From a virus, in IMG/VR virus record IMGVR_UViG_3300045988_136447, positions 2,554 through 66,553 of that record: DNA of 64,000 nt. One strand, given 5' to 3'. Each line of letters starts with the position of its first letter. Position 1 is the first letter of the stretch. Below, in pieces: positions 6,574 through 64,000 of the stretch. The notes under the pieces were generated by a model. The model was given only the letters and a program-made list of their open reading frames with translations. It had not been told where the DNA came from and did not search any database. The position numbers and the translations under genes are program-made.

Positions 6574-7836
6574 ATGCAGGGATCGGAAATATGGGCTGAA
6601 AGTTGGGGCGTACTGCCGGAAGTTCCTTTGTTTGAAGACAAAGTTACCGGAATCAAATATGATTTCAACTACGGATTTCGATGCCATTCCCCGAGCGACA
6701 GCGACGATATGTTTAACATTCATATCGAAACATCCGCAGGTGACGTATTGTGCGACATACCACTTGCCGCCGGATGCAAGTGGAGCTTTCCTTTTAAGTA
6801 TTACATGGACTACACGGTTACGATAACCGGGAAGCATGGTGTATTCCGGGAGACGCTTGATCTTACTGATAAAACAGTTATGATTATGTGCAGCGTAAGG
6901 ACGCTTGGAGATTCTATTGCATGGTTGTCCGCCGTTCCTGCCTTTGAAAGAAAGCACAAATGTAAGTGTGTGTGCGTCGTGAATAACGATATCTATGAAC
7001 TGCTTAAGGATTCAGAGCAGATCAAAGTAATTAAACTTGAGGATAAATGCAATTACACTCCATATGCTACATACTACTTGGGTTTGTTTTTCGATGAATC
7101 ATACAGTAAATTTTGGCAGCCGTATGATTTCAGGCTTGACGGCCTTCATGAACAGGCCAAAAACATTTTAGGAATCCGCAACGAAGAAACCCGGCACCTT
7201 GAGCTTAGAGACGCAGGCACGAATCCACTGGCCGGTAAAAAGTATGTGTGTATCTCATACTCCGGCAGTAAGGCGAACAAGTTTTGGAATAATCCGATCG
7301 GATGGAAGAAGGTGGTCAAGTACTTGCATTCATTGCAGTATGCAGTTGTGTGCATCGACAAATCTGATGTATGCGGAATTGCCCCCCTATACTACTACAT
7401 GCCGAACGGCGTGATTGACATGACCGGAGACCTTTCTTTGCAGTCAAGAGTTGACGTGCTTAAGGGCGCTGAGATGTTCATCGGCATGGCAAGCGGGCTT
7501 TCGTGGCTTGCATGGTGCAGCGGAGTGCCGGTCGTTATGATTAGCGGTTTCAGTCTGCCGTATGCAGAATTTTACACAAAGTATCGTGTAATCAATACAA
7601 TGTGTGAGTGCATCGGATGCTGGAATGACACGAGAATTCAGTTTTCTCGCCATGATTACATGTGGTGTCCCCGTATCGATAACGAGCTGCAAGCGCTCAA
7701 AGTCTCGGACGCTGAGAGCGAAGCAGAATACCGTCGCCTTTCGCAAAAACGCTTTATGTGTACACAAACCATTACACATAATATGGTTATACAGAAAATC
7801 AATGAAGTTTTAGAGGATCAGCACAGGGAAAATTAA
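6574..7836 (+). CDS. protein with C-terminal GT9 (heptosyltransferase-like) glycosyltransferase fold
   Basis: C-terminal half matches the GT9 pattern: KYVCISYSGSKANKFW...GDLSLQSRVDVLKGAEMFIGMASGLSWLAWCSGVPVVMI (compare G.LSL.EL.ALI..A.L.IGNDSGPMHLAAAL). Confidence 0.5.
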   Translation: MQGSEIWAESWGVLPEVPLFEDKVTGIKYDFNYGFRCHSPSDSDDMFNIHIETSAGDVLCDIPLAAGCKWSFPFKYYMDYTVTITGKHGVFRETLDLTDKTVMIMCSVRTLGDSIAWLSAVPAFERKHKCKCVCVVNNDIYELLKDSEQIKVIKLEDKCNYTPYATYYLGLFFDESYSKFWQPYDFRLDGLHEQAKNILGIRNEETRHLELRDAGTNPLAGKKYVCISYSGSKANKFWNNPIGWKKVVKYLHSLQYAVVCIDKSDVCGIAPLYYYMPNGVIDMTGDLSLQSRVDVLKGAEMFIGMASGLSWLAWCSGVPVVMISGFSLPYAEFYTKYRVINTMCECIGCWNDTRIQFSRHDYMWCPRIDNELQALKVSDAESEAEYRRLSQKRFMCTQTITHNMVIQKINEVLEDQHREN

Positions 7837-7925: not shown

Positions 7926-8720
7926 ATGTTTGACGTCCCTATTTTGTTTTTTGATTTGGAAACCACAGGGGTTGATCCTGAGGAAGACAGGATTGTACAG
8001 TTTGCAGGTATCAGGACGACACCGAATCATGAGCCTGTCGAGTTTACCTTTAAGTGCAATCCTGAAATCGAAATTTCAGAAGGAGCAAGCAGAGTTCACG
8101 GCATCACGAATGAAGAAGCCAAGCAGTATGCTGCTTTCGATGCTTTTTCTGATAAACTTTACCGCATGGCACATGGTGCCATTTGGGCAGGGTACAACAA
8201 CTTCAAGTTCGATATCCCGATGTTTATGAATGAGTTTAAAAGACGCGGGCTTAAAGTTCCTGAGTGTGCCGGAGTGCTGGATGGTTATAAGCTTTTCACG
8301 CATTTTTACGGCCCGGCAGGGAAAGGAAAAAGAACGCTGAAAGCTGCACACGTGCATTACTGCGGTTACGAATTTGAAGATGCGCACGATGCCGTGGCTG
8401 ACATCAAGGCTACGATCAATGTGTTTGAAAACATGATCATCGAACATGGAGATGACCTCAAAGCGTTTCTTAAGGTGTCGGAAGCGATCCCGCTAAAGAT
8501 CGACTTTAAAGGGATGTTCACTTTCGATCCTAAACGGAAAGTAGCCGTATTGGGGTACGGCAAATACAAGGGGGTTCCCCTCGCGGAAGTTCCGGTATCT
8601 TACTTCAAGTGGATTATCGACACGACCGGATTCAATGCAGATACAAAGAAAATCGCAAGCGAAGCCTGTCGTGGTATTTTTCCTCAGTACCAAAGGCCGA
8701 AATTTAAACGTAATTTCTGA
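7926..8720 (+). CDS. DnaQ-like DEDDh 3'-5' exonuclease
   Basis: Exo I FFDLETTG, Exo II YNNFKFDIPM, Exo III HDAVADIKAT. Confidence 0.75.
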   Translation: MFDVPILFFDLETTGVDPEEDRIVQFAGIRTTPNHEPVEFTFKCNPEIEISEGASRVHGITNEEAKQYAAFDAFSDKLYRMAHGAIWAGYNNFKFDIPMFMNEFKRRGLKVPECAGVLDGYKLFTHFYGPAGKGKRTLKAAHVHYCGYEFEDAHDAVADIKATINVFENMIIEHGDDLKAFLKVSEAIPLKIDFKGMFTFDPKRKVAVLGYGKYKGVPLAEVPVSYFKWIIDTTGFNADTKKIASEACRGIFPQYQRPKFKRNF

Positions 8721-13600: not shown

Positions 13601-14815
13601 ATGCTCGACCTTCCGCACATTGTACCGGAGTATGAAAACTCTAATTGCTCTGCTTGCAGACTAGATTGTGGTTCACGGCTGCAATTGGCAGGACATGGCC
13701 ATAAGAAAATTCTGATTGTGTTCGATGCCCAAGACGCAATTCAGCAGACTACAAAAACGTACTTTTGCGGAAGTCGTTACACTTACGTTCGTGATCTGCT
13801 GTACAAGTACGGCATTACGACGGATGACATATGGATGACTTCCACCATTCAGTGTTATTCCGAGTACAAAGAAGAGCAACATGCCATTCACTGCAAGCCA
13901 AACCTCATCAAGACAATAAAGAGGCTTAAGCCGGTACTCGTGATCGGTTTTGGTGAATTTACAGCTAAGATGCTGCTGTCTTACATCATTGAAGACGGTA
14001 TTTTCCTTGACCGAGTTCACGGTTGGGTGCATCCTAATCGTGAACTGGGCTGTAACATGATGTTTACGTACACTCCCCATCCGGGTTCGGCAAAGTATAA
14101 GACGATCGAGGAGTTCATTATCGAGCGCGACGTACATATGGCTATTAAAAGCCTTGCCAAGCCGCCTGACACGTACACGCCGGAAAACAAGTGTGTACGC
14201 CTGCTTGAACCTAAAGAGGCCGCCATGTGGCTGCGAGACCGCATAAATGACAAAACAGAACGGTTTTCCGCTCTTGACTACGAGACTAACTGTCTGAAAC
14301 CGTATAATCCCGCTGCCAAATTGTACAGTTGTGCGGTATGCGAAGATCGCGATAACTCATATGCGTTTAAGATAGATGATACAACGTATTCTCTTATGCG
14401 TGAGTATTGGGCCACAAAGCATATCAGGAAGATAGCACACAACAGTGCGTTTGAACGCATGTGGACTATGGTTAAATTGAAAGTAATGCCAAGAAGACTG
14501 ATCGCTGATACCATGTTGCTAGCTCATGTTCTTGACAACAGAGACGTAAAGTGGCTGTCGATTAAGTTTATCGGCCCTATGCTTACCGGATGCTCCGTAT
14601 GGAATGGCCATATCGAATCTTACTTAGAGCCGAGTAAGCAGGATAAGAAGCTGTACGGAGAATATGCCTTGAACAGGGTTGCATCAATACCGATCAGGCA
14701 GCTTCTTACATACAACGCAATCGATAGTCTTGTAGAGTTTCGTACATTTTTCAAACTGTATGAAATGCTTAAAAATTTTTACGGTACTTTCCCGATTGAA
14801 AGCGAGAGCGAATAA
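13601..14815 (+). CDS. family A DNA polymerase, N-terminal 3'-5' exonuclease part (separate ORF)
   Basis: Exo motifs LDYETNCL and AHNSAFE; stop TAA overlaps the ATG of the next ORF (TAATG). Confidence 0.7.
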   Translation: MLDLPHIVPEYENSNCSACRLDCGSRLQLAGHGHKKILIVFDAQDAIQQTTKTYFCGSRYTYVRDLLYKYGITTDDIWMTSTIQCYSEYKEEQHAIHCKPNLIKTIKRLKPVLVIGFGEFTAKMLLSYIIEDGIFLDRVHGWVHPNRELGCNMMFTYTPHPGSAKYKTIEEFIIERDVHMAIKSLAKPPDTYTPENKCVRLLEPKEAAMWLRDRINDKTERFSALDYETNCLKPYNPAAKLYSCAVCEDRDNSYAFKIDDTTYSLMREYWATKHIRKIAHNSAFERMWTMVKLKVMPRRLIADTMLLAHVLDNRDVKWLSIKFIGPMLTGCSVWNGHIESYLEPSKQDKKLYGEYALNRVASIPIRQLLTYNAIDSLVEFRTFFKLYEMLKNFYGTFPIESESE

Positions 14816-16188
14816 TGATTACGCCAACTACAATGGATGCCTTTAAACTTGTGATGATGGGGGAAGAGGCACTTACTCAGGTATCCGTCAATGGATTTAA
14901 AATTGACAGGGACTACTACGAGAGACAGAAGCCCGTTATCCAAGAAGAAATCAAGCGTTTACGCACTCAGATACTCACTCAGTCGGAGATCGGAAGATGC
15001 TGGCATGAGAGGTATGGGGCTAAGACTAACATCGATTCCAACGATCAGTTGAAAGCCGTACTTGAACACGATATCCATTTCGATAAATTCAAAATCACGG
15101 ACAAGGGCGGTAAGTCGGCAGATGCTTCCGTCATCGAAAAGCTGCCCTATGAGTTCAGTAATCCATTCAGCCGATATAAGCAGTTCGGCAAAATGTGGGG
15201 AAGCCTTATCACTCCCATCATGCTTGGTGCAGACATAAATGGGTTTGTGCACCCAAATATCAATCTTCACACCGTGAGAACTTACCGATCGTCATGCGAT
15301 TCCCCTAACTTGCAGCAGGTTCCGAAGCATAACAAGTTGATTAAAGAAATCGTAAGAAACGGGTTCATACCTAGAAGTCCCAAGAGGATGCTTGCTGAAA
15401 TCGACTTGCAGTCTGCTGAGGTTAGTGTTGGCTGCTGTCTGCACCGTGATAAGCAGATGTTGCAATTCCTGCACGACAAGACGATCGACATGCATACATT
15501 CGTTGAGAAAGAGTTTTATAAGCTCAATGATGATGAATTGTGTAAGGAGTTGCGATCTTCCGTAAAGGGAAGATTTGTGTTTGCTTCATTTTACGGAGCA
15601 GGTGCATCATCGATGGCCGCCTCGCTGTGGGAGTATATAGAAGAATCGAATTTCACACTTCCGACAGGCGAAAAGCTGAAAGACCATATGGCCAAGTTAG
15701 GCGTAGTCGACTATGACACCTGTCTCCAGCATACGGAAAGGGTATTCGATTGGTATTGGAATACTCTCTTCAAGGAGTACGGTGCATGGAAAGAAGCCAT
15801 ATGGGATTTGTACAAAAAACAGGGATACTTAGACTACCCAACCGGATTCCGTGTGGTTGCCGCGATGACAAAGACACAGGCTATGAATACGATTATTCAG
15901 GGGTCTACGTTTCACCTGCTTCTACTGACGCTTATTGAGTTGCAGAAGCGAATGACTTACTATAAGTTAGAATCAAAAATAGTATGTCAGATTCATGACA
16001 GTATCGTTTTGGATTTACTCCCTTCGGAGCAACAGACTGTTTTTGATCTGTATCTTGACAGCCAGGCAGCAGTACGCAAGCGTTGGCCGTGGCTTCTGTA
16101 TCCGATTACCGCAGATGCGGATATCAGCGAAGTAGGCGGTACATGGGCTCACATGACAAGTTATGGAGAAATTACGCATGCAAGCTGA
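14815..16188 (+). CDS. family A DNA polymerase, polymerase (palm/fingers) part
   Basis: Motif A EIDLQSAEVSV, motif B RSSVKGRFVFASFYGAG, motif C QIHDSIVLD. Confidence 0.8.
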   Translation: MITPTTMDAFKLVMMGEEALTQVSVNGFKIDRDYYERQKPVIQEEIKRLRTQILTQSEIGRCWHERYGAKTNIDSNDQLKAVLEHDIHFDKFKITDKGGKSADASVIEKLPYEFSNPFSRYKQFGKMWGSLITPIMLGADINGFVHPNINLHTVRTYRSSCDSPNLQQVPKHNKLIKEIVRNGFIPRSPKRMLAEIDLQSAEVSVGCCLHRDKQMLQFLHDKTIDMHTFVEKEFYKLNDDELCKELRSSVKGRFVFASFYGAGASSMAASLWEYIEESNFTLPTGEKLKDHMAKLGVVDYDTCLQHTERVFDWYWNTLFKEYGAWKEAIWDLYKKQGYLDYPTGFRVVAAMTKTQAMNTIIQGSTFHLLLLTLIELQKRMTYYKLESKIVCQIHDSIVLDLLPSEQQTVFDLYLDSQAAVRKRWPWLLYPITADADISEVGGTWAHMTSYGEITHAS

Positions 16189-21950: not shown

Positions 21951-22832
21951 ATGAAGAAAATCGAAGCTCCTGAAAATGCGGCAAAACTTCTCGTTGATGT
22001 TCGTGGTGTTCTTTATGGTGCCTTCTTTTGGGCGCGAAAAACTTACAATATGGAGAACACGAAAGAGTTTCACGGAGCTATTCTGTACAGATTCTTTCAG
22101 AAGCTGAAATATGCGCATTACTACGCAAATACGAATCGCATTTATTTCTGCCTCGATTCAAAAGAATCGAAACGCAAGGAACTTTACCCTGAGTACAAAG
22201 CGAATCGCATCAAAAATGAAGACCTGATTGCCTGCTTTCCGTTTTTTGAAAAAATACAGAATACCATTCTCCCCGGAATGGGATTCAACAACGTAGTTCA
22301 GTACGAAGGTCTCGAAGCTGATGACATTATCGCCTCTATCTGCATCAATGAAAAGAAGCTCCCTGTTGTAATTTACTCTGAGGACGCTGACCTGTATCAG
22401 TGTCTTAAAGGCAACGTCACGATCCTCAGCCCGAGCCACTCATCTGATAAATTTCCGTCTTTGATGACGGTATTGAAGTTTCAGAAAATTTTTGAGCTCG
22501 ATCCGTCCATGTGGGTTGAAGTGAAGGCTATTGCAGGGTGTGCGACAGACAACGTTAAACTCTTGAAGGGGATCGGTGAGACTACCGCTATCAAGTATCT
22601 GAAAGGCGAACTCAAGGGCGGGATGAAAAAGGCCCTGATCGACGTCAGTCCTGATGTTATCGCGTTTACAAGAAAGCTCGTTGAGCTGCCGTTCGGTGGC
22701 GAAGTTCTTGATATCAAGTATAAGCCCGATGACTTCAACAAGGAATACTTTGCAAAAGTGATCCAAGAATATGGTTTGGCTTCTATGGCCACTGATTCTT
22801 TTTGGAACGATTTCTTTGGGTGGGGTGCATAA
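21951..22832 (+). CDS. 5'-3' exonuclease / flap endonuclease (FEN, PolI 5' nuclease-like)
   Basis: GLEADDIIASI; SEDADLYQCL; HhH motif IAGCATDNVKLLKGIGETTAIKYL. Confidence 0.8.
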   Translation: MKKIEAPENAAKLLVDVRGVLYGAFFWARKTYNMENTKEFHGAILYRFFQKLKYAHYYANTNRIYFCLDSKESKRKELYPEYKANRIKNEDLIACFPFFEKIQNTILPGMGFNNVVQYEGLEADDIIASICINEKKLPVVIYSEDADLYQCLKGNVTILSPSHSSDKFPSLMTVLKFQKIFELDPSMWVEVKAIAGCATDNVKLLKGIGETTAIKYLKGELKGGMKKALIDVSPDVIAFTRKLVELPFGGEVLDIKYKPDDFNKEYFAKVIQEYGLASMATDSFWNDFFGWGA

Positions 22833-28623: not shown

Positions 28624-28643
28624 GTAAAATAACCTAAAATCGT

Positions 28644-28690
28644 GTCACTGTGATGTCACTGTGATGTCACTGTGATGTCACAGTGACATT
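28644..28690. promoter_or_regulatory. operator-like array: GTCACTGTGAT x3 tandem followed by palindrome ATGTCACAGTGACAT
   Basis: Seen directly in the sequence, immediately upstream of the minus-strand HTH/Zn regulator gene. Confidence 0.5.
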
Positions 28691-40419: not shown

Positions 40420-43400
40420 TTATTGCCCCTTAACTACAATCGTGTTGTTTGTTTTCATAAAGTTATAAATATCAAGAACTGTCTTACCGGTAGACGCCTG
40501 CGCGTATTCCTGAGACCTGACATAAGCATCAAGAGTGCGGGCCACCGCACTCTGCGCCGATTGAGCATTCTTGTAGTTTGGAATGCCCCGGGTTTCCACG
40601 GACGGCGGCTGCGCTAACGCAAATGAAGCTCGCGGCCCCATTAAGCGTGTCATAAGGTTCAGGCTATGGTAAAGTGCGTCTTGCGTTAAGCGGCCCTTAG
40701 CGTCCTTGTTAGAGGCAAATTGTTGTATCTGATTCAGCATGGCATTTTGTACTTCACGCTGCGCGGCCCCAAAACCCTTAGTTGCGAGGGCGGCATCAAT
40801 TTGAGCATTCTTTAAACTCTCTGTCGCCTGTTGCAGTCGGAAAAACGATTCAACGGTGGGAGATTCGCGATACCGCTGTTCGAATTGCGCAACTTCCTGA
40901 TTCGCTCTGGAAACCCGTCCACTGTATACTTGCCGGACACCGGCCTCGTATGTCGATCCCGAAATCAATCCGGCATTCTGTTCTTTTTCAAGCTGTTGAA
41001 GTCGATATTCTTCTGCCTCATTGATAGCATTAAAATACTTTTCAGACGCAGTATTGTGCTGCTTTACGAGCTCTCGAAGCTGCCGTTGCAAGATGGAAGC
41101 TTGTGATCCCCGCACCCCGTTCGACAACTGCTTTTCGACATACTCGATTTCATCTTGCAAGCCATCAAGGACAGTTTTCTGCATGTTTTGCCGGGCAATC
41201 AGCAGTGTGTAAGATACACGGGAAGTATCAAGCCCTGTACGGTAGAACTGCTGCTCCGCATATGCTGTAATGTCCTCGATGACAGATTCAATATACACAG
41301 AGGATGCTTTTTGAACTTTTTTGCGTGCGGCTGCAAGCTGCTTCCCCGCGTTGTCGATTGCACCAACAATTTTATCCCGCGCACTAGCCTCCAATCTGTC
41401 TTTAACCTTGTCGTAGGCAGTAACGATGGCAGACAGAAATTCTTCGTGTCTTGTCATCATTTCAGATTCGTATTCAAGTCTTGAAGTCAGGTCTTCAACC
41501 CTGCTTACGTCCCGATTCTGCAACAAGTAGCGGGCGCGAGATTCCCCGACGTACTCTTTATTTAGTTTGTGGGCTTTCTCCAAATCTTCGATGTAAAAAT
41601 TAAGATTCACGCCGATAAGATTAGACAGGGCGCTCGCCACTTTACGTTGCGCTTCCCTGAATCTCTGAGTACGCACAGCTTCCGTTTCAGTCGAATTCAC
41701 TTTTTGTATTTGTGAATTCAGTGAAGAAATCACGTTGAACAGAATATTTGTTTGGATATCGCTAAGACCTTTAGCGATGTCAGCATCGCGTAAGGCGGCG
41801 ACATCCTGAACATTCAGAAGTTTATTAAGTTCTGAATAATCACCGGAGCGTGTGGCGTCTGCCAGCATCCGTTTAATGGTATCTATTTGAGACGAAACGC
41901 CCCCTGCCTCTACAAATCTATTAACAGCAGAAAGGTGTCCAGCTGTTAATTGAGGATAGTCACTGAATTCTTTCTGCGTTTCCGGTGTGAGGCTGTAAAA
42001 CCTTGAATAAGGACTACTGCGCTTCTGTGCCAGAGATACGTCATAAGCCGAAGCAAGCCTGTCGATAGCGGAGTAGAAAGCGGTACTGCGGGCTCCTACA
42101 ATCGCATTAGCATCAAATGTTTCCCGCTGGAACCTAGCCAAGCCTTCTAAGGAATCCTGATAACCCCTCTGCGCGTTTTCAATAGATTGTGTGCGCACCG
42201 TTCTGCGGTCGAGTTCCTCACCGTAAGATTTATTCAGTCTTGAAATTGTTTCCTGCAACTGCTCTTTCGTTTTTGCAATCGCTATTTCTGCTTTGAGATT
42301 TTCAGCTTCATAGCTTGTAATCTCATTAGCCATTTTCAAGCTATCAACTCGAGTATTTGCCTGTCTGCGCAGTGCGGCTACATTATGCTGCTCATTCTCT
42401 GTTTCCTGTTTATCGGTATCAATTCCGTAAAACGCATTAACAATGCTTTTAATGAAACCAGAATCCGCAAAATTGAATCTTTCTGCTATCGCTTTTCCGA
42501 TATTGTACCCGATGTCTGCGACAGACCACGCGGCAATAGCAGAAAAGATGCTGTTTCCGATTTTAGACAGCAGACTTCCTGTACCTGTAATTTCACTCAG
42601 TGTATTGGTTACACTGAATTTTCTCCCAACACGAGATGCCATTGAATTGGGATCACGCGGAAACCGAACACCATATGCTTTTGCATACTGATTCAGATCA
42701 CCGGAATCGAGCATGGCCTTCTGTTGATTGAGCTGTGTAAGGCGATTACGCGAAATCGCAAGTCGCTTAGTGGCCGCGTCAAGTCGGTCATGCGTTGTGA
42801 TAAATCTTCTTGTGTATCTGTTTTCAAGATTACGCAATCTTGTTTGCTCTCTAAGAGATGCATTCGATTCTTGCGCAAGTCTGCGTTGCATTTGCACATC
42901 AAGAAGATTATCAGAAGCTACTTGTGCCTTTCCTCCGGCAGACAACAGTCCTCTAAACGAAGAACGAACTCCACGTCTGGCAGACTGCAATTTACGATTA
43001 AGGGAATTTCTTTCAGCCTTCACCGCTTCATTTCTAGCCGTAGCAGCAATCGCGGTATTAGCTGCCTGCGCTCCACCTCTAGGTACAACAGTGGATTGTA
43101 CAGAAGAGGCGGCTCCCGTAGCCCCCGTTGCAACATTATGAATAGCCGCCCGGATGTCATACAGCTCTTTTTTCAAGGCCCTAAGTGCCGTAACTACAAT
43201 GTAAATGTAAGTAGCGTAACGACTAAGGGGCTTAGTATCCCCGAATCCCTTCATGACAGCTTCCGCAAGCCCATACACCGATCGAGTTACCGGCTCGATA
43301 TCGGAACCGATCTGAATCAGCGTCTTTTCCGTTTGAGCACGGAGCCTGACCAAATCCTTATAGGCAGTATCGATTTGCTTTGTAAATGCCTCTTCACCCG

Positions 43401-51464: not shown

Positions 51465-52760
51465 TTAAAACACAAATGCATTCATTTTATCCACACCATA
51501 AGAAATATACCGCACGCAGTCGATAACGTCATCATCTATTTTGATGGGAGATTCCTTATTCGACACTTCGCTGCTGCTTTCATGCCAAGAATAGTTTTGA
51601 AACTCCGTGATGATGCTTTCACATGTGTTAAAAACTTGAAGTCTTGGTTTTCCGGTCTTACGATTGATCATTAATCTCTGGGCGATAGAATTAATCCCAT
51701 CAGCCACCGACTTATGAGCGGGTTTCGTATAGATACCCTCTGATTGTAAGTATGCACGATCTGCCGCAGCATGGTCAGCCCATCTTACCATGTAAATATC
51801 TTTATTCTTTTTCTGATAGTCGTTGATCTCGTTTGCGGCTTCACGGATTGTAATTCCAGATTTTTTAAAATCATGGTAAAAGTACAGAATATCGTTCACA
51901 AAGTCATGCGCTGCGCATACAAATGCAAACGGGTGTTTGTACCCAAAGTCGATCGCTGAAAACTTAGCCCAATACGGGGGTATAGTAAAAGGCTCTACAA
52001 CGTGTATGCGCTCATCAAATTCTTTGAAAATCTGCCCCTCACCCCCACACCACCTGCCATGCAACATTCTTTCTCTTTGAATTTCAGGGAGCGCGTCAAG
52101 TGTATCAATGTATCCCGGAGGTAGATTCTCTAGGTTGTCATAGGCTGTCCAGTGCAACAGAGCGTGTTTATCTGCATCTTTGAGCTTCTTAAACGGCTTG
52201 GAAGCAGGATCAAGTAGCTGAACTCCCCAAATGTACAGCCAGTGCCTTTCAGACTGCGGATTGCAGTCGAGAATCATCTTGTTTACCGCTACAAATGTTC
52301 CGGTGATATCTTTCACTTTCTGTGCAAGACGGGTTTTCAGCATGCCGATAACTTGATAAGTCATCTGCGTAGCCTCGTTACAGAAAATCGTAATGTACTC
52401 AGTACCCAAACATTTCTGCGCTCGATCTTCATCATCAAGACCACCCAATACGATTACAGAACCGTTACTGAATTGAACTTTCAACTCAGATTTTACTAGC
52501 GTGTATTCGCTATCAGGGATGTACAGATTCAGATACTTGGGCAAGGAATCATCCCAAATTGAATTACGTGCGTCAACCAAATTTTTGCGCACAATGAGTT
52601 GCCGACTTCCGGGAAACTGAAACGCTCTTCCAATCATATATTCCATAATAAGGAAGGTTTTACCGGAGCGTGATCCTCCGGTAAACAAGATCGTTTCCTT
52701 ATCCGGGTTTTGAAGCAGCTCAAGCCCCGTTTTCTGTTTAGCTGTCAGCTTTAGCGGCAT
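51465..52760 (-). CDS. terminase large subunit
   Basis: Walker A TGGSRSGKT near N-terminus; size 431 aa; position. Confidence 0.8.
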   Translation of the reverse strand: MPLKLTAKQKTGLELLQNPDKETILFTGGSRSGKTFLIMEYMIGRAFQFPGSRQLIVRKNLVDARNSIWDDSLPKYLNLYIPDSEYTLVKSELKVQFSNGSVIVLGGLDDEDRAQKCLGTEYITIFCNEATQMTYQVIGMLKTRLAQKVKDITGTFVAVNKMILDCNPQSERHWLYIWGVQLLDPASKPFKKLKDADKHALLHWTAYDNLENLPPGYIDTLDALPEIQRERMLHGRWCGGEGQIFKEFDERIHVVEPFTIPPYWAKFSAIDFGYKHPFAFVCAAHDFVNDILYFYHDFKKSGITIREAANEINDYQKKNKDIYMVRWADHAAADRAYLQSEGIYTKPAHKSVADGINSIAQRLMINRKTGKPRLQVFNTCESIITEFQNYSWHESSSEVSNKESPIKIDDDVIDCVRYISYGVDKMNAFVF

Positions 52761-59667: not shown

Positions 59668-60068
59668 AACAATACAGTATACACTGTGAATGGGAACATA
59701 AAATGAACGAGTACAAGATTAATGAAATATTTATCCATACTGATGGCAAAGTCTATCAATGCGTAAGGGCTGAAGGCACTTGCGAAGGGTGTGCACTTAG
59801 ATGTGGGTGGGACTGCCCCGGTAGGTCTTGTACCGGGGATGAAAGAAAAGATGGTATCGATGTTAAGTACGTTCTAGTCACGGAGCCCTCCAACGGGATG
59901 CTTTACCGCGCCGGAGACGGGGAAATGTACCAGTTAAAATACAGAGATCCACCATCAGTCGGATGCGCCTGTAATGTTGGCATGTACGGTTGCGGCTGCC
60001 TTGATGATAGGGTGTGTCGTATAGTATTGGAATGGGATCGTTATTGGGGAAATACATTTGATGAGTGA
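59664..60068 (+). CDS. Cys-rich hypothetical protein
   Basis: 134-aa ORF. Confidence 0.5.
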   Translation: MKQYSIHCEWEHKMNEYKINEIFIHTDGKVYQCVRAEGTCEGCALRCGWDCPGRSCTGDERKDGIDVKYVLVTEPSNGMLYRAGDGEMYQLKYRDPPSVGCACNVGMYGCGCLDDRVCRIVLEWDRYWGNTFDE

Positions 60069-60080
60069 TTATTATGATGT

Positions 60081-60311
60081 ATGTTATGCCATGTGGCTTC
60101 GTGGCTTGCCAAGCCCCCTATTGATAGTTATGAATACCTGCACTTGCATTGCGATATGAATGATGAGGCCATTGTCAATCATTTTGAAAAACAGACAAGG
60201 GATGCGGAATTGGATCATTATCAGAAAAAAGAAAGCGAGTATTCAAGAAAGGAGCAAGAATGCGTTGCCCGGATGTTGCGGGATGGTTATGATATAGATG
60301 ATATATTTTGA
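60081..60311 (+). CDS. hypothetical small protein
   Basis: 76-aa ORF. Confidence 0.4.
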   Translation: MLCHVASWLAKPPIDSYEYLHLHCDMNDEAIVNHFEKQTRDAELDHYQKKESEYSRKEQECVARMLRDGYDIDDIF

Positions 60312-60333
60312 CAACTACTTACTATTTTATAAA

Positions 60334-60447
60334 ATGATAGATAGGGACGAGCGGGAGGCATTTATTCTTGTTGGAATTACAATTTTAATTTCAGTAATTA
60401 TTATTGTTTCAATTTGCTATGGGTGTGCGTGTCACGTTGGTTTATGA
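60334..60447 (+). CDS. tiny TM peptide (37 aa, MIDRDEREAFILVGITILISVIIIVSICYGCACHVGL)
   Basis: Paralogue pair with next peptide. Confidence 0.3.
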   Translation: MIDRDEREAFILVGITILISVIIIVSICYGCACHVGL

Positions 60448-60469
60448 CTAAATAAAGAGGTTGAAAGAG

Positions 60470-60583
60470 ATGATAGATGATGAGCATGAAGATGTAAATT
60501 TTTATGGGATTACTATTTTGTTTACGTTTTTCATTGTGGTGGCGCTGGTGGGTTGGTTGCTTTGTCGGATGGATATAAGTTAA
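60470..60583 (+). CDS. tiny TM peptide (37 aa, MIDDEHEDVNFYGITILFTFFIVVALVGWLLCRMDIS)
   Basis: AAGAGG RBS; shares MID.E.E...GITIL with the preceding peptide. Confidence 0.35.
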   Translation: MIDDEHEDVNFYGITILFTFFIVVALVGWLLCRMDIS

Positions 60584-60641
60584 CAATTCTAAAAGTTGGG
60601 GGCGAGTGTGTGTACAACACTAACCCGCCCCCGCCACAAAA

Positions 60642-60700
60642 ACTCGAGCCGATTTGGTGCTCCTAATAGTTAGGGATTCATAACCAAATCGGCTCGATTC
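60642..60700. terminator. long inverted repeat (CGAGCCGATTTGGT ... ACCAAATCGGCTCG) between convergent genes
   Basis: 14-bp arms seen in sequence. Confidence 0.5.
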
Positions 60701-60882
60701 GATTCGATTTTCGATTTTAACTTATTGCTTAATCCCCCGGTTTACTTGCTTCGATATCGTTTATATGCGCTGCCGGATCGCTTGATCCCGGTTTTCGGTT
60801 TTCGTACACCCGGCAACCTGTCCGCTTTCTTGATATAGTGTTTCATACGACCGCCGGGCGGTTGCGCCCGGCCCGATAACGA

Positions 60883-61518
60883 TTACTTGCCAACTTCCGG
60901 GGCGGCCGCTTCCTTGCCGTCCTCCTTACCATCCTCCTTACCGTCCTCCTTACCGGCTTCCGTCTTGGCCTCCGCTCCCTGTTCAGCCTGAATCGGAAAA
61001 TTGACCTGTTCACGCAAGTAGACCAGCGCGGGTGACGGCTCCGGCACCACAGTATACCCATTACGGACGGCGGCAATCAAGGCTTGCGCAATCGTTCTTG
61101 TTGCGGCGATTGCCATGTCCTCCCCTGTTGCGTCACGCATAACCCGGACGCAAGCCCGCGCGAAAGCGTCTACTTCACCGCGGTAGCCTGTGAATGTAAA
61201 ACCCTCGCAACAGACAAGCCGCGCTGCAACTTCGGCCATGGTAAGGGCCTGTGGCTTATTGGCCGCCTTGACCTTTTCAAGCGCCTTAGTAGCGGCCTGA
61301 ACGGTTGCGGAAGCCGTCATAATCTTTTCAACGTCACCGGAAGCGGCAATTGTGCGAAGATTGTTTGTAGCCTCCTCCAAAGCCGCCTCAGCTGCCTTAA
61401 CGACGGGCGAAACGGCGGGTCTTGCCAGTTCCGCAATCATGCGGCTATAGGCCGTTTCCGGCAAGACTTCAATGCCTTCCTTGGCGATTTTCTCGTTGAT
61501 CTCTTTCATGATATCCAC
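60883..61518 (-). CDS. GC-rich Ala-rich protein with C-terminal KEDG x3 repeats
   Basis: 211-aa ORF; local GC about 58%. Confidence 0.5.
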   Translation of the reverse strand: MDIMKEINEKIAKEGIEVLPETAYSRMIAELARPAVSPVVKAAEAALEEATNNLRTIAASGDVEKIMTASATVQAATKALEKVKAANKPQALTMAEVAARLVCCEGFTFTGYRGEVDAFARACVRVMRDATGEDMAIAATRTIAQALIAAVRNGYTVVPEPSPALVYLREQVNFPIQAEQGAEAKTEAGKEDGKEDGKEDGKEAAAPEVGK

Positions 61519-61576
61519 CTTTCGTTAGTTTTGGCGGCCGCTATGGACGCCTGTTACTGTATTCACCTTATTTTAA

Positions 61577-61933
61577 TTAATCACGATTGCAATAATTAAG
61601 TTTATAGACTTTTACAACTGCTCCGCTATCGTCCTCAATATCATAACTGAAAAACATTTCACAAAATCCGTATACTTCATTAGAAGATACATTATTCAGG
61701 CTGCAATGTGAAATAGTGTGTACCGTAACGAAATTATCACAAAACACCAATTCACAGTCTATAATCGAAAGCGTATGATCAATAAACGAATGCTTTTTGG
61801 CGTGCCGCCTAACCAAATCGTAAATACGTGCTTCCGTATCAAGTTTATTGCTTTTCAATTCTTTAATACGATTGCGGATTCCTTTTCCGTATACGCTTCT
61901 GCTAAAATCGCTGGTAATGTACTTAATGTTCAT
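61577..61933 (-). CDS. hypothetical protein
   Basis: 118-aa ORF. Confidence 0.45.
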   Translation of the reverse strand: MNIKYITSDFSRSVYGKGIRNRIKELKSNKLDTEARIYDLVRRHAKKHSFIDHTLSIIDCELVFCDNFVTVHTISHCSLNNVSSNEVYGFCEMFFSYDIEDDSGAVVKVYKLNYCNRD

Positions 61934-61989
61934 GATTACGCCTCCCTTGCTAGTTGTAACCTTTCATTGGTTTTGGCGGCAAGTTAAAC

Positions 61990-62301
61990 TCAACGTATAA
62001 ATCCCGGCACTGACACAATTTGTCCGTTAACATATACAGCGTCCGGGTGACCATACGCCGGACAAACAAGGTCAGCACGTTGCGGCTCGGCCGTTTTCAC
62101 AATTTCCGCCACAATATAAATTGTGTTTTGAGAGGCGACAGGGAGATTTACCACCTCATGCTTGATAGTCGCGATGCCATTCGAATCGAAGCCTGTGCAT
62201 GTAGCAGTTCTACGCGCAATGATTCCGGACGGCGGAAAGACCCTGCCGTCATTTAGCCGCACTTCATATGCCGTACAATTGACAAACTTTATAGTGTTCA
62301 T
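61990..62301 (-). CDS. hypothetical protein
   Basis: 103-aa ORF. Confidence 0.45.
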   Translation of the reverse strand: MNTIKFVNCTAYEVRLNDGRVFPPSGIIARRTATCTGFDSNGIATIKHEVVNLPVASQNTIYIVAEIVKTAEPQRADLVCPAYGHPDAVYVNGQIVSVPGFIR

Positions 62302-62546
62302 GATTGCGCCTCCTTGTGTTGTGTTTTCCTGTTACAGTATATAACATACATGCTTTTCAGAACAATTCAAGCATGTTTTCAAAGAATTTTTAACTTATTT
62401 TTCGATAACAGAAAAATTCAATTATTTTCACGGTTTATTGCAATTCTAACTTGACTTTACGGGAAATATGTGCTATCGCGCGCACGTACATTATATAGGG
62501 CGGCGGCCGGGCGAATTTAGTTCAGGAATTGGCGATCAAAGAGTTT

Positions 62547-62612
62547 ATAATTAGGATTTCCTGATAATTAGGATTTCCTGATAATTAGGATTTCCTGATA
62601 ATTAGGATTCCG
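62547..62612. repeat. 17-bp tandem repeat ATAATTAGGATTTCCTG, about 3.8 copies
   Basis: Perfect tandem copies seen directly. Confidence 0.9.
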
Positions 62613-62662
62613 GAAGCAGCCGCCCCGGGCTGGGATTGCGTAATCATATGTATATGGATTAT

Positions 62663-62873
62663 TTTATATGCATCGGCATCCAAGTTTTGATTTTATATGC
62701 ATCGGCATCCGATAATGATATTTGTGTTCATCGGCATCTGGTATTGATATTGATATCAATAGCGGTATTTAAGTTAACGGAATAGCACAAATCGCTCATT
62801 TTATGATTTTATAGGGATGGCGGCCTATGGTACTGAAATGATACCATGGTTCAATTTTATATGCATCGGCATC
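62663..62873. repeat. 3 copies of TTTTATATGCATCGGCATC (62663, 62691, 62855) plus a CATCGGCATC variant at 62729 and the palindrome TTGATATCAA
   Basis: Seen directly; same CATCGGCATC core as in gene 1987..2547. Confidence 0.85.
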
Positions 62874-63542
62874 TAAGTTATGACTGGATGTCGTGTTTTA
62901 TACCAAATAACACAAATGTATTTAGGCTTTCCGGCGGGATAATATCACAAAATGCAATGTGGTTATGGTGATTTTGTGCTACTTTTTATGATTTGCTATT
63001 GAAATTTCCGGGAAGAGCGCGTATATTTATATGTTGAGGGGGCGGAATAGTGATTAGCGTAAACTATTTGCAATGATGTAGATACAAAAGTATAGGCGGC
63101 GGCATATGATGTACGATTTCCGTAAAAGATTATGATTGTGCGGGCGTCGGACGAATGGTGATTTCGTGCTATTTATTTATCACATTTTATAATCCCAAAT
63201 AGCATATAATCATTACCAAAGATGGCAAACGCTACCGCTCAGAAACATGTTTCTAAGTTAATAAAGGTACTTTATAAATTAACTTTACAAAGTATCCATG
63301 GTATCGAAATAGTACCATAAACGGCACGCGCAATAGCACAAAACAATCACCAGCCCGCCCCCGTCTGGCTATGGATTCCGGCTAGCTATGGATGCCCCCA
63401 TAAAGATTACGTATTGATTACGTCCCGCCTGATTATGGCTTCCACAATAGCACAAATCGCTCATCCGGCCAGGTACGTTGATGCCGGATTTCGCCTCAAC
63501 TGCCTTTGCAGAAAGTTAACGATAATAGCACAAAACGCTCAT
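62781..63542. repeat. dispersed AATAGCACAAA(A/T)CGCTCAT motif family: direct copies at 62781, 63332, 63446, 63524; inverted copies at 62968, 63157
   Basis: Seen directly; three copies identical over 19 nt. Confidence 0.8.
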
Positions 63543-63656
63543 CAACGCCGTAAACGATCTGTATTGATTATCGGGTTTATTTCCCGGACGGAAGGGGACT
63601 TACCGTTTGTAAAGTAAATTGATTTACAGGGGGCGCGCGGGCTAACAACCCTTAAA

Positions 63657-64000
63657 TTTTCAACGGAAACGGCTCTCTGACGCGACTTAGCATATTGCCG
63701 GTAAATTATGCGCCCGGGCCGACGAGCGAAGCGAGGAGGCCGTTTGCGTTGAATTTTACGGCATTCTAACATAACTCGAAAAGAGCGGCCGCAAGGACGC
63801 GAATTTTCGAATAAGCGGAAACGAGACAGTATCGATTTTTTCAACGGAAATGGCTTTCTCATGCGACTTGTTACATTGCCGGTAAATTATGCGCCCGGGC
63901 CGACGAGCGAAGCGAGGAGGCCGTTTGCGTTGAATTTTACGGCATTCTAACATAACTCGAAAAGAGCGGCCGCAAGGACGCGAATTTTCGAATAAGCGGA
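63657..64000. repeat. about 181-bp tandem direct repeat (at least 1.9 copies, truncated by window end)
   Basis: Copy 1 63657-63837 and copy 2 63837-64000 nearly identical. Confidence 0.85.

Follow-up and report, generated by a model that had tools for sequence, protein, structure and literature searches.

The 64,000-nt stretch of DNA analysed here (hereafter the window; positions 2,554 to 66,553 of IMG/VR record IMGVR_UViG_3300045988_136447) makes up about 96% of the ~66-kb genome of an uncultured tailed phage from the human gut and ends within a gene-free region that is packed with repeats. In relatives, the window end joins the window start via ~2.6 kb, and the genome assembles as a circle of ~66-67 kb. 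The gene-free region measures ~2.3-2.6 kb, and the 1.65-kb repeat stretch at the right end of the window forms its left two-thirds. Genes diverge from this region: a leftward block runs from 62301 back to 60883, while a rightward block starts ~600 nt past the window end and runs into the replication genes at window positions 1-26 kb. The two directions converge near 26.4 kb, roughly opposite on the circle. All position numbers refer to the whole window; repeats were read in 61000-64000, which was also run through three repeat finders.

We found that the repeat-packed region is truly non-coding, because none of its open reading frames (ORFs) of at least 41 aa (six ORFs, 41-106 aa) has a Pfam or PHROG match and because the four of these six that were compared with relatives are all broken there by frameshifts or stops. 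This bears out the preliminary description of the window, according to which no credible ORF is present. It is the only repeat-rich non-coding region in the genome, and no iteron-like cluster lies beside the loader and helicase genes. A CRISPR array would consist of short repeats with unique spacers; here the 181-bp unit is duplicated whole and the 17-mers run head-to-tail without spacers. The features of the region, from left to right, are the following.

62451-62479, + strand: promoter-like site TTGACT-17 nt-TATCGC, preceded by TGc, directed rightward into the repeats; in all relatives
62547-62612, + strand: perfect tandem of the 17-mer ATAATTAGGATTTCCTG, 3.7-3.9 copies; hypervariable site
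62661-62739, + strand: three TATRTGCATCGGCATC boxes, 29-bp phased, the third a variant (repeat finders); 0-4 copies in relatives
62750-62759, no strand: palindrome TTGATATCAA, not kept in relatives, where the stretch is replaced
62781-62799, + strand: AATAGCACAAATCGCTCAT box, candidate iteron, preceded by AAGTTAACGG; kept in relatives
62826-62849, no strand: palindrome TATGGTAC-N8-TACCATGG, copy 1; kept in relatives
62854-62874, + strand: fourth TATATGCATCGGCATC box (repeat finders)
62906-63290, no strand: most conserved non-coding block, with few differences among eight aligned genomes (alignment)
62999-63027, + strand: promoter-like site TTGAAA-17-TATATT; hexamers invariant in relatives, spacer varies
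63201-63228, - strand: promoter-like site TTGCCA-16-TATGCT, facing the 62999 site; hexamers vary and stay promoter-like
63296-63319, no strand: palindrome CCATGGTA-N8-GTACCATA, copy 2 (repeat finder)
63332-63350, + strand: AATAGCACAAAACAATCAC box (repeat finder, motif count)
63361-63441, + strand: GC-rich variable stretch with three CCGnCTrGCTATGGAT-type 17-mers and GATTACGT repeats; content and copy number vary in relatives
63446-63464, + strand: AATAGCACAAATCGCTCAT box (repeat finder, motif count)
63524-63542, + strand: AATAGCACAAAACGCTCAT box, preceded by AAGTTAACGAT (repeat finder, motif count)
63657-63837, + strand: 181-nt hairpin module, copy 1, with a hairpin at 63696-63763 and a terminator-like stem-loop at 63775-63811
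63838-64000, + strand: second copy of the 181-nt hairpin module, with 95% identity to the first; cut short by the end of the window

Four unrelated repeat families had been described from the window alone, and all four are present and non-random, but the total exceeds four, and the families interleave instead of being unrelated. The 17-bp tandem comprises 3.7 perfect copies at 62547-62609 with a partial copy reaching ~62612. The second family holds, as reported, three copies of TTTTATATGCATCGGCATC (starting at 62662, 62691 and 62855), the variant TTTGTGTTCATCGGCATC at 62721 and the palindrome at 62750-62759; the first three CATCGGCATC boxes follow each other with 29-bp phasing, and CATCGGCATC occurs six times in the window, compared to an expectation of 0.12. 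For the third family at least six copies over ~760 bp had been claimed, and we found eight AATAGCACAAA-type boxes within 62781-63542, with the 19-bp consensus AATAGCACAAAAC(G/A)nTCA(T/C). Four of them, at 62781, 63332, 63446 and 63524, match exactly on the + strand, three as full 19-mers; two (62965-62983 and 63155-63173) are reverse complements, and two (62906 and 62941) are degenerate + strand copies. With at most one mismatch AATAGCACAAA has nine matches in the whole window compared to 1.9 expected, a count that none of 100 shuffles reaches, and eight of the nine lie within 62781-63542, the ninth being a single-mismatch match at 42535. An independent count of enriched 8-mers recovers the same three short repeat families. 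The fourth, a repeat of about 181 bp said to be GC-rich and to run to the window edge, does occupy 63657-64000 (1.9 copies, 95%), but it is not a long array and its GC content is only mildly raised (~0.5 in the units against ~0.44 for the genome). Furthermore, additional families are found: the two TATGGTAC-N8-TACCATGG palindromes, CTATGGAT(T/G)CC repeats and GATTACGT repeats. The 17-mer has a TTAGGAT/TATGGAT core in common with the first of these repeat families.

Relatives were gathered from public collections by the box sequence and then by neighbouring proteins, which gave ~15 contigs with proteins 77-93% identical; the contigs with a source in the record title are human-gut metagenome assemblies. 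For the comparison we used an eight-genome alignment and motif counts, with box counts taken from five genomes spanning the region. The boxes of the AATAGCACAAAAC..TCA type are constant, with 7-11 per spanning genome in the order + + + - - + + +, and so are the block 62325-62545 with its promoter-like site, the core 62906-63290 and the two TATGGTAC-N8-TACCATGG palindromes. The core holds the two degenerate + strand boxes, the two reverse-complement boxes and the facing pair of promoter-like sites, and is unlikely to be coding because single-nucleotide indels occur in it among relatives. The same order of elements is found in IMG/VR 3300045988 and 3300029782, in ENA ODME01, ULLC01, OIWQ01 and ERZ809201, and in Logan SRR31800294 and SRR31800457. 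Collapsed or chimeric reads, which the preliminary description had named as what would undo its picture of the region, could account for assemblies often breaking here; that the region is such an artefact is nevertheless hardly credible, as the same order recurs in independent assemblies from several projects and assemblers that differ from each other by ordinary sequence divergence.

Other parts of the region are fluid. At the site of the 17-mer tandem, relatives carry 0-1, ~1.7, 3.7 or 7 copies, the low-copy forms being diverged, or unrelated tandems of 15/16-mers (TTATGGATCGTCCAG in N copies in relative L035, GGAATTGACTATCGC in five copies in L036), and one replacement tandem is clearly derived from the local flank. 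The CATCGGCATC boxes number 0-4 per relative, with the whole cluster deleted in L029; the GC-rich middle gains and loses CTATGGAT- and GATTACGT-type repeats; and the segment flanking palindrome copy 2 is duplicated in four relatives, with an extra box and a GC-rich insert. These hypervariable hot spots coincide with short-read contig ends. Exact inversions of the inside of a short hairpin are seen twice, each in a single relative: in L002 within the module hairpin (compared to 63783-63803) and in L024 just after the 17-mer array (compared to 62612-62630). The inversions are bounded by the short inverted repeats CGAAAA/TTTTCG and CCGG/CCGG and look like template-switch inversions at quasi-palindromes.

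The Leptospira phage LE1 is maintained as a plasmid. As LE1 is the nearest terminase relative (36% identity) and as short tandem repeats near a promoter-like site are also found in parC and tubC centromeres, the region could be read as the partition site of a plasmid-like prophage, which had been one of the three functions first proposed for it. We consider this very improbable: no ParA/ParB, ParM/ParR, TubZ/TubR, integrase or repressor was found among the ~60 ORFs scanned, which include part of the small ones, and the 17-mer tandem is absent or replaced in close relatives.

Six relatives (L024, L022, L038, L002, L007 and L062) show the sequence ~100-600 nt past position 64000. After the second 181-nt unit follow a variable microsatellite, (AACGAT)n, (GGGAAT)n or (GAGAC)n, and a long hairpin, in which three different compensatory variants and U.G intermediates preserve the stem. 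Past this hairpin lie a pyrimidine tract, a 120-bp AT stretch, G-rich and C-rich inverted tracts, a promoter and a 198-codon gene (ORF198), which is a real gene judging by its variable sites, because these split 26/22/75 over the three codon positions. The AT tract, the AT maximum of the genome, reaches 84-87% AT over 120 bp in five relatives, compared to a window maximum of 76.7% per 120 bp; it lies ~100 nt past the conserved hairpin and, placed by homology, at an estimated distance of 250-400 bp beyond the window. Its edge is marked by a small conserved hairpin, GTAAAA..TTTTAC.

Between 1 and 26 kb, the + strand carries genes for a primase, a helicase, a DnaB-like helicase and its DnaC-like loader, together with a PolA-type polymerase, a proofreading exonuclease, a clamp-loader-like ATPase, a ligase, a 5'-3' exonuclease, an SbcCD-like pair and a Dam-type methylase. 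With this gene content in view, we tentatively favour, at somewhat less than even confidence, the hypothesis that the region is an iteron-type replication origin combined with early-transcription control; more generally, we infer from its motifs a dense landing pad for several sequence-specific DNA-binding proteins. We favour the origin because the box family is conserved in number, order and orientation and concentrated in the region, because an extreme AT tract with conserved hairpins alongside lies downstream, because the region sits at the point of gene divergence, about opposite the 26.4-kb convergence and beside the replication-gene block, because the genome has no other repeat cluster, in particular none near the loader and helicase genes, and because there is a proven precedent with the same look in the origin region of the Vibrio PLE satellite. 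Eight boxes of the 17-22 bp class stand in one non-coding region, as iterons do, and a putative AT-rich unwinding element is placed beside them by homology.

Under this hypothesis, the 19-bp AATAGCACAAAAC(G/A)nTCA(T/C) boxes would be iterons at which a phage-encoded protein binds and builds a nucleoprotein complex. The complex, possibly aided by rightward transcription from the conserved promoter-like sites, would open the AT-rich tract, where the DnaC-like loader, the DnaB-like helicase, the primase and the PolA-type polymerase would start synthesis. The 17-mer tandem and the CATCGGCATC boxes would be accessory arrays that the phage can dispense with and that change through slippage, duplication and deletion. 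The 181-nt module would be a duplicated stem-loop pair kept by selection on pairing, and may act on unwound single-stranded DNA (ssDNA) as a priming signal or on a transcript as a terminator or processing signal.

Several observations weigh against such an origin. The spacing of the boxes is irregular (125, 35, 32, 190, 169, 114 and 78 bp) and two of them are inverted; a regular 32-bp box tandem is found only in L035. No Rep-type or other DNA-binding family (Pfam/PHROG) was found in any flanking gene scanned. No DnaA boxes (TTATCCACA, at most one mismatch) were found in 60000-64000 or in the full region of L024, and GATC clustering is absent there. Only homology places the AT tract, which is not part of the window. 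Cumulative GC skew, which had been suggested as a way to locate the origin, follows gene direction only and gives no independent origin signal. ORF198 was considered as the initiator, but its AlphaFold model is poor (pLDDT 63) and its fold matches are unspecific, the Foldseek top matches being PUR-alpha/Whirly ssDNA binders with E >= 0.014 and TM 0.2-0.3; its homologues are restricted to the clade, and we retain it as a lead only. Finally, the injection-stop region (iss) of phage T5 appears equally repeat-rich and is not known as an origin. Of the three functions offered by the preliminary description, an origin with iterons fits best, but with neither an initiator nor DnaA boxes found it stays an inference.

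We do not take the region for a new kind of element: it would work like known phage or plasmid origins or control regions, while it shares sequence with none. In Vibrio cholerae, the PLE satellite has a 2.7-kb non-coding region with four repeat families and an iteron origin bound by a RepA_N initiator (PMC7145576). Like the PLE region, the one described here is a gene-free region of ~2.5 kb with several repeat families between gene clusters of a mobile viral element, and PLE replication requires only a subset of its repeats, much as one family is conserved here and several can be lost. The two differ in that the RepA_N initiator adjoins the PLE region and replication has been demonstrated there, whereas no initiator was recognised beside the present region; there is no motif similarity, and the present element is a full phage with its own replisome.

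Among other known origins, P1 oriR/incA, lambda ori and SPP1 oriL are iteron origins, and the T7 primary origin, T4 oriF/oriG and ColE1 are promoter-driven. Classic iterons are regularly spaced, in one orientation, and lie beside or inside the initiator gene. The gut-phage region resembles both groups in having repeated boxes of 17-22 bp by an AT-rich unwinding element and promoters pointing toward that element. It departs from classic iterons by the irregular spacing and the two inverted boxes, and an RNA-primed mechanism is only possible.

The likeness to T5 iss is also close. Both are long non-coding stretches in lytic phages with a PolA-type replisome, both hold nested direct repeats, inverted repeats, palindromes and a short tandem array, and in both the order of elements is kept from relative to relative, next to small early genes that vary. 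The iss of T5, beside the pre-early genes A1/A2, is part of a ~10-kb terminal repeat and has paired DnaA boxes (bioRxiv 10.1101/866236); the gut-phage region has no DnaA boxes, the conserved hallmark proposed for iss, and no sequence similarity to T5 iss. Accordingly, a DNA-entry element of the injection-stop kind or a genome-end element, or alternatively a concatemer junction or packaging site, has to be weighed, and the preliminary description had itself proposed a packaging or terminal region. Apart from an architecture that includes the tandem array and nested palindromes of iss (bioRxiv 10.1101/866236), the best database matches of the polymerase include T5-like phages (~24% identity), the flanking genes are small and of early type, with conjugative-leading-region types and a weak, sub-threshold Lar-like match among them, and many contigs end inside the region. 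These ends, however, are scattered, with four in the 17-mer tandem and others at ~63100-63470, in unit 2, in a box tandem and in the AT tract, and because they fall at different repeats rather than at a single position they indicate assembly breaks instead of a physical terminus. At least four independent contigs (two IMG/VR, two ENA) read straight through the region, the terminase genes are 9 kb away and transcribed away from it, and there is no sign of long terminal repeats, which assemblies cannot show. We therefore regard an entry or end element as improbable, and its packaging variant finds no support.

Next to the origin, the density of putative regulatory sites brings up transcription. 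The promoter-like site at 62451 has a weak -10 hexamer that ends in C. The TATGGTAC-N8-TACCATGG palindrome looks like an operator for a dimeric protein. The string AAGTTAAC, which is the same as that found after the phage promoters, precedes two AATAGCACAAA boxes. The phage promoter consensus is TTGAAA-N14-TGnTAYATT, often followed by A(A)GTTAA, and the consensus promoters of the window are the following.

2629, 7862, 11776, 19884, 53783 and 55820, + strand: consensus promoters
57649 and 2597, - strand: consensus promoters

Furthermore, CATCGGCAT forms a second cluster at 1880-2870, with all copies on the + strand; the window holds ten copies on this strand and none on the other. The copies of the second cluster are the following.

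1995 and 2361, + strand: GTGCATCGGCATC, strong copies
2070 and 2469, + strand: GTGCATCGGCATT, strong copies
1880, 2744 and 2852, + strand: TCGTCGGCATC, weaker copies

All four strong copies fall within 1987-2547, a lone minus-strand gene (186 aa, with its own promoter and of no known family) whose product contains a DADAH peptide once per copy, each time with identical codons. The weaker copies belong to + strand genes and are read in other frames. The 1.15-kb stretch of the cluster is 96-98% identical among relatives, compared to 87-97% for the adjoining 1-1500. A DNA-level signal shared by this cluster and the non-coding one is likely.

These observations permit the reading that the region is a transcriptional switchboard only, in which boxes and palindromes are operators that time two diverging early operons and the origin lies elsewhere. 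The location between diverging operons, the palindromic operator-like and promoter-like sites, and the second CATCGGCAT cluster around a lone minus-strand gene with its own promoter, which resembles a regulon, would all fit. Nevertheless, ~2.5 kb with at least six motif families is far beyond the need of two promoters, the boxes mark no regulon since just one AATAGCACAAA match (42535) falls outside the region, and neither the extreme AT tract nor the conserved hairpins would be explained. A switchboard alone thus appears distinctly unlikely.

We then come to the 181-nt module, on which the remaining alternative turns. In relatives it is present as one full copy, or as one full copy and one truncated at ~nt 163, which is the window end; because of this truncation it is most likely that the array does not continue beyond the window. 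Each unit forms two local hairpins. A long-range helix obtained from a single-sequence fold was rejected in favour of these, as mismatches in relatives break it. The tip of the long imperfect hairpin at 63696-63763 is CGAGCGAAGCGAG at 63723-63735, a GCGAAGC mini-hairpin flanked by tandem G.A pairs, and it is invariant except for a change of GAA to GCA (giving GCGCAGC in some copies) that still fits GCGNAGC. The second stem-loop (63775-63811) resembles a two-way terminator in that runs of A and T border it.

Mini-hairpins of the GCGNAGC type are found at priming sites, in the complementary-strand origins of phages G4, St-1 and alpha3 and in plasmid ssiA (PMC13037366). The module tip shares this sequence, but in G4 the host primase reads the hairpin on a single-stranded genome, while the gut-phage context is double-stranded. 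A scan with the conserved tip of the module gave two extra IMG/VR contigs, both with the match in unrelated coding sequence, and an exact 33-mer of the module has no match in IMG/VR. As AGCGG recurs after the hairpins, Chi sites were considered and dropped: the strand bias in the window is weak (91 compared to 64), with no local excess.

Across 14 module copies, 96% of the cells are paired, with four pairs changed on both sides, compared to ~36% paired in slid controls, and the covariation score of 0.090 exceeds the 0.065 of shuffles, none of 500 of which reaches it. G.U pairs outnumber A.C cells on the + strand by ~15 to 5, and because of this excess the pattern favours a + strand transcript, without proving one. 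The support for selection on pairing is real but modest, because most pairs never vary, the structure was derived from the same sequences on which it was tested, and the folding z-scores are weak (-1.5 for the + strand, -1.05 for the - strand).

Such data are also what would be expected of a transcribed non-coding RNA locus, in which rightward transcripts carry the 181-nt stem-loops and the downstream hairpin as structured RNAs. These might be regulators, protein sponges or a primer for the AT tract, as in ColE1 RNA II/RNA I or the T4 R-loop origins, and an antisense partner could come from the two promoter-like sites that face each other at 62999 (+) and 63228 (-). In addition to the pairing, covariation and G.U excess of the module, this reading draws on the rightward promoter-like sites, in one of which the hexamers are kept while the spacer varies, on the downstream hairpin with its three compensatory variants and U.G intermediates, on U-rich runs after the stem-loops, and on a phage that encodes PolA and a 5'-3' exonuclease. 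On the other hand, the same hairpins would form in single-stranded DNA, the 54:93 pair is broken in one more distant relative, and the invariance of most pairs, the low z-scores, the loss in relatives of the strongest helix predicted from the window alone and the weak -10 of the 62451 site all speak against it. Rfam 15 gave chance-level matches only, for the window end and the full region of L024 (mir-2518 at 21 compared to 61 bits, GA-cis at 17.7 compared to 34.7), with nothing at E <= 1 beyond chance in the window or the relative. On balance we hold an RNA locus to be unlikely, while keeping it in view. It is rather doubtful, in particular, that the 165-181-nt module is an undescribed structured RNA that, with the sense/antisense promoter pair, primes or gates replication at the AT tract. 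If the RNA reading were true, this gut phage, which brings its own PolA, would have a ColE1- or T4-like RNA-dependent origin, and the hypervariable arrays just past a promoter would serve to tune a binding factor or to sponge it up.

For gut phages that have not been cultured, hardly any origin or early control region has been mapped. If the origin hypothesis is true, the origin of a whole human-gut clade could be recognised by the AATAGCACAAA boxes together with the AT tract, and both would give a handle on the cognate initiator among many unannotated proteins. As the comparison shows, the region evolves as a fixed scaffold of boxes, hairpins and AT tract with sites at which arrays appear, expand, get replaced or are flipped by small inversions, and the fluidity of these sites explains the frequent assembly breaks in these phages. 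The region is of moderate interest to annotators and assemblers of gut phages and will not surprise a specialist in phage replication.

With regard to the rest of the genome, genes for the major capsid protein, the portal and the large terminase subunit lie on the minus strand between 26.4 and 53.5 kb, together with further ORFs outside the scan, among which a 1301-aa ORF is taken for the tape measure. The large-subunit gene of the terminase occupies 51465-52760 on this strand, and the small ORFs that follow up to 53482 are taken for the small subunit. Past two tRNAs at 54.1 kb come many small genes, one of them for a dUTPase. The ORF scan described above revealed no gene for an integrase, a repressor or partition. 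The closest cultured relatives have at most 36% identity in the terminase and ~24% in the polymerase, and neither the region nor 24 kb has a match by blastn/megablast against 50,697 phage records. The promoter consensus and the strong Shine-Dalgarno sites on the phage genes point to a host with a sigma-70/sigma-A type polymerase; the box pattern has two single chance matches in bacterial genomes, which give no host clue.

Some further features were recorded along the genome. The PolA-type polymerase is split over two adjacent ORFs (13601-16188), with the proofreading and 5'-3' exonucleases as separate genes (7926-8720 and 21951-22832). A family-9 glycosyltransferase (heptosyltransferase) domain with a weak TibC-type N-terminal match at 6574-7836 is unusual cargo amid replication genes. 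At 60640-60701, where the + strand block of small genes meets minus-strand genes, a long hairpin with a perfect stem is probably a two-way terminator, and its microRNA-like Rfam match is due to chance.

The edge of the region is a gene-shuffling spot, to judge from the relatives L005/L024, L033, L035, L036 and L038, because the leftward genes of 118 and 103 aa at 61577-62301 are swapped in order in one relative and the 103-aa gene is missing in four others. A link between this 103-aa gene (61990-62301) and the 17-mer was rejected, since L038 lacks the gene yet has the same 17-mer array. On the other side, a DUF4121 protein (L024:4395-4850), of a family that we take to come from Bacteroidota conjugative elements, and a 324-aa protein (L024:4962-5936) are encoded among the first rightward genes, shortly ahead of window position 1. 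Both look like early, possibly anti-defence cargo. A search for deeper relatives with the latter gave one match, in L057, where the gene stands in an unrelated phage context and without a comparable region.

Two further short tandems lie outside the repeat region. A near-perfect 11-bp tandem, TGTCACTGTGA in four copies, is found at 28643-28686 in a 65-bp gap between two minus-strand ORFs. The other, the 12-bp TCCTTACCGTCC in 3.8 copies at 60911-60955, lies inside a 211-aa gene and encodes GKED repeats; a relative has a different 12-mer, in five copies, at this site.

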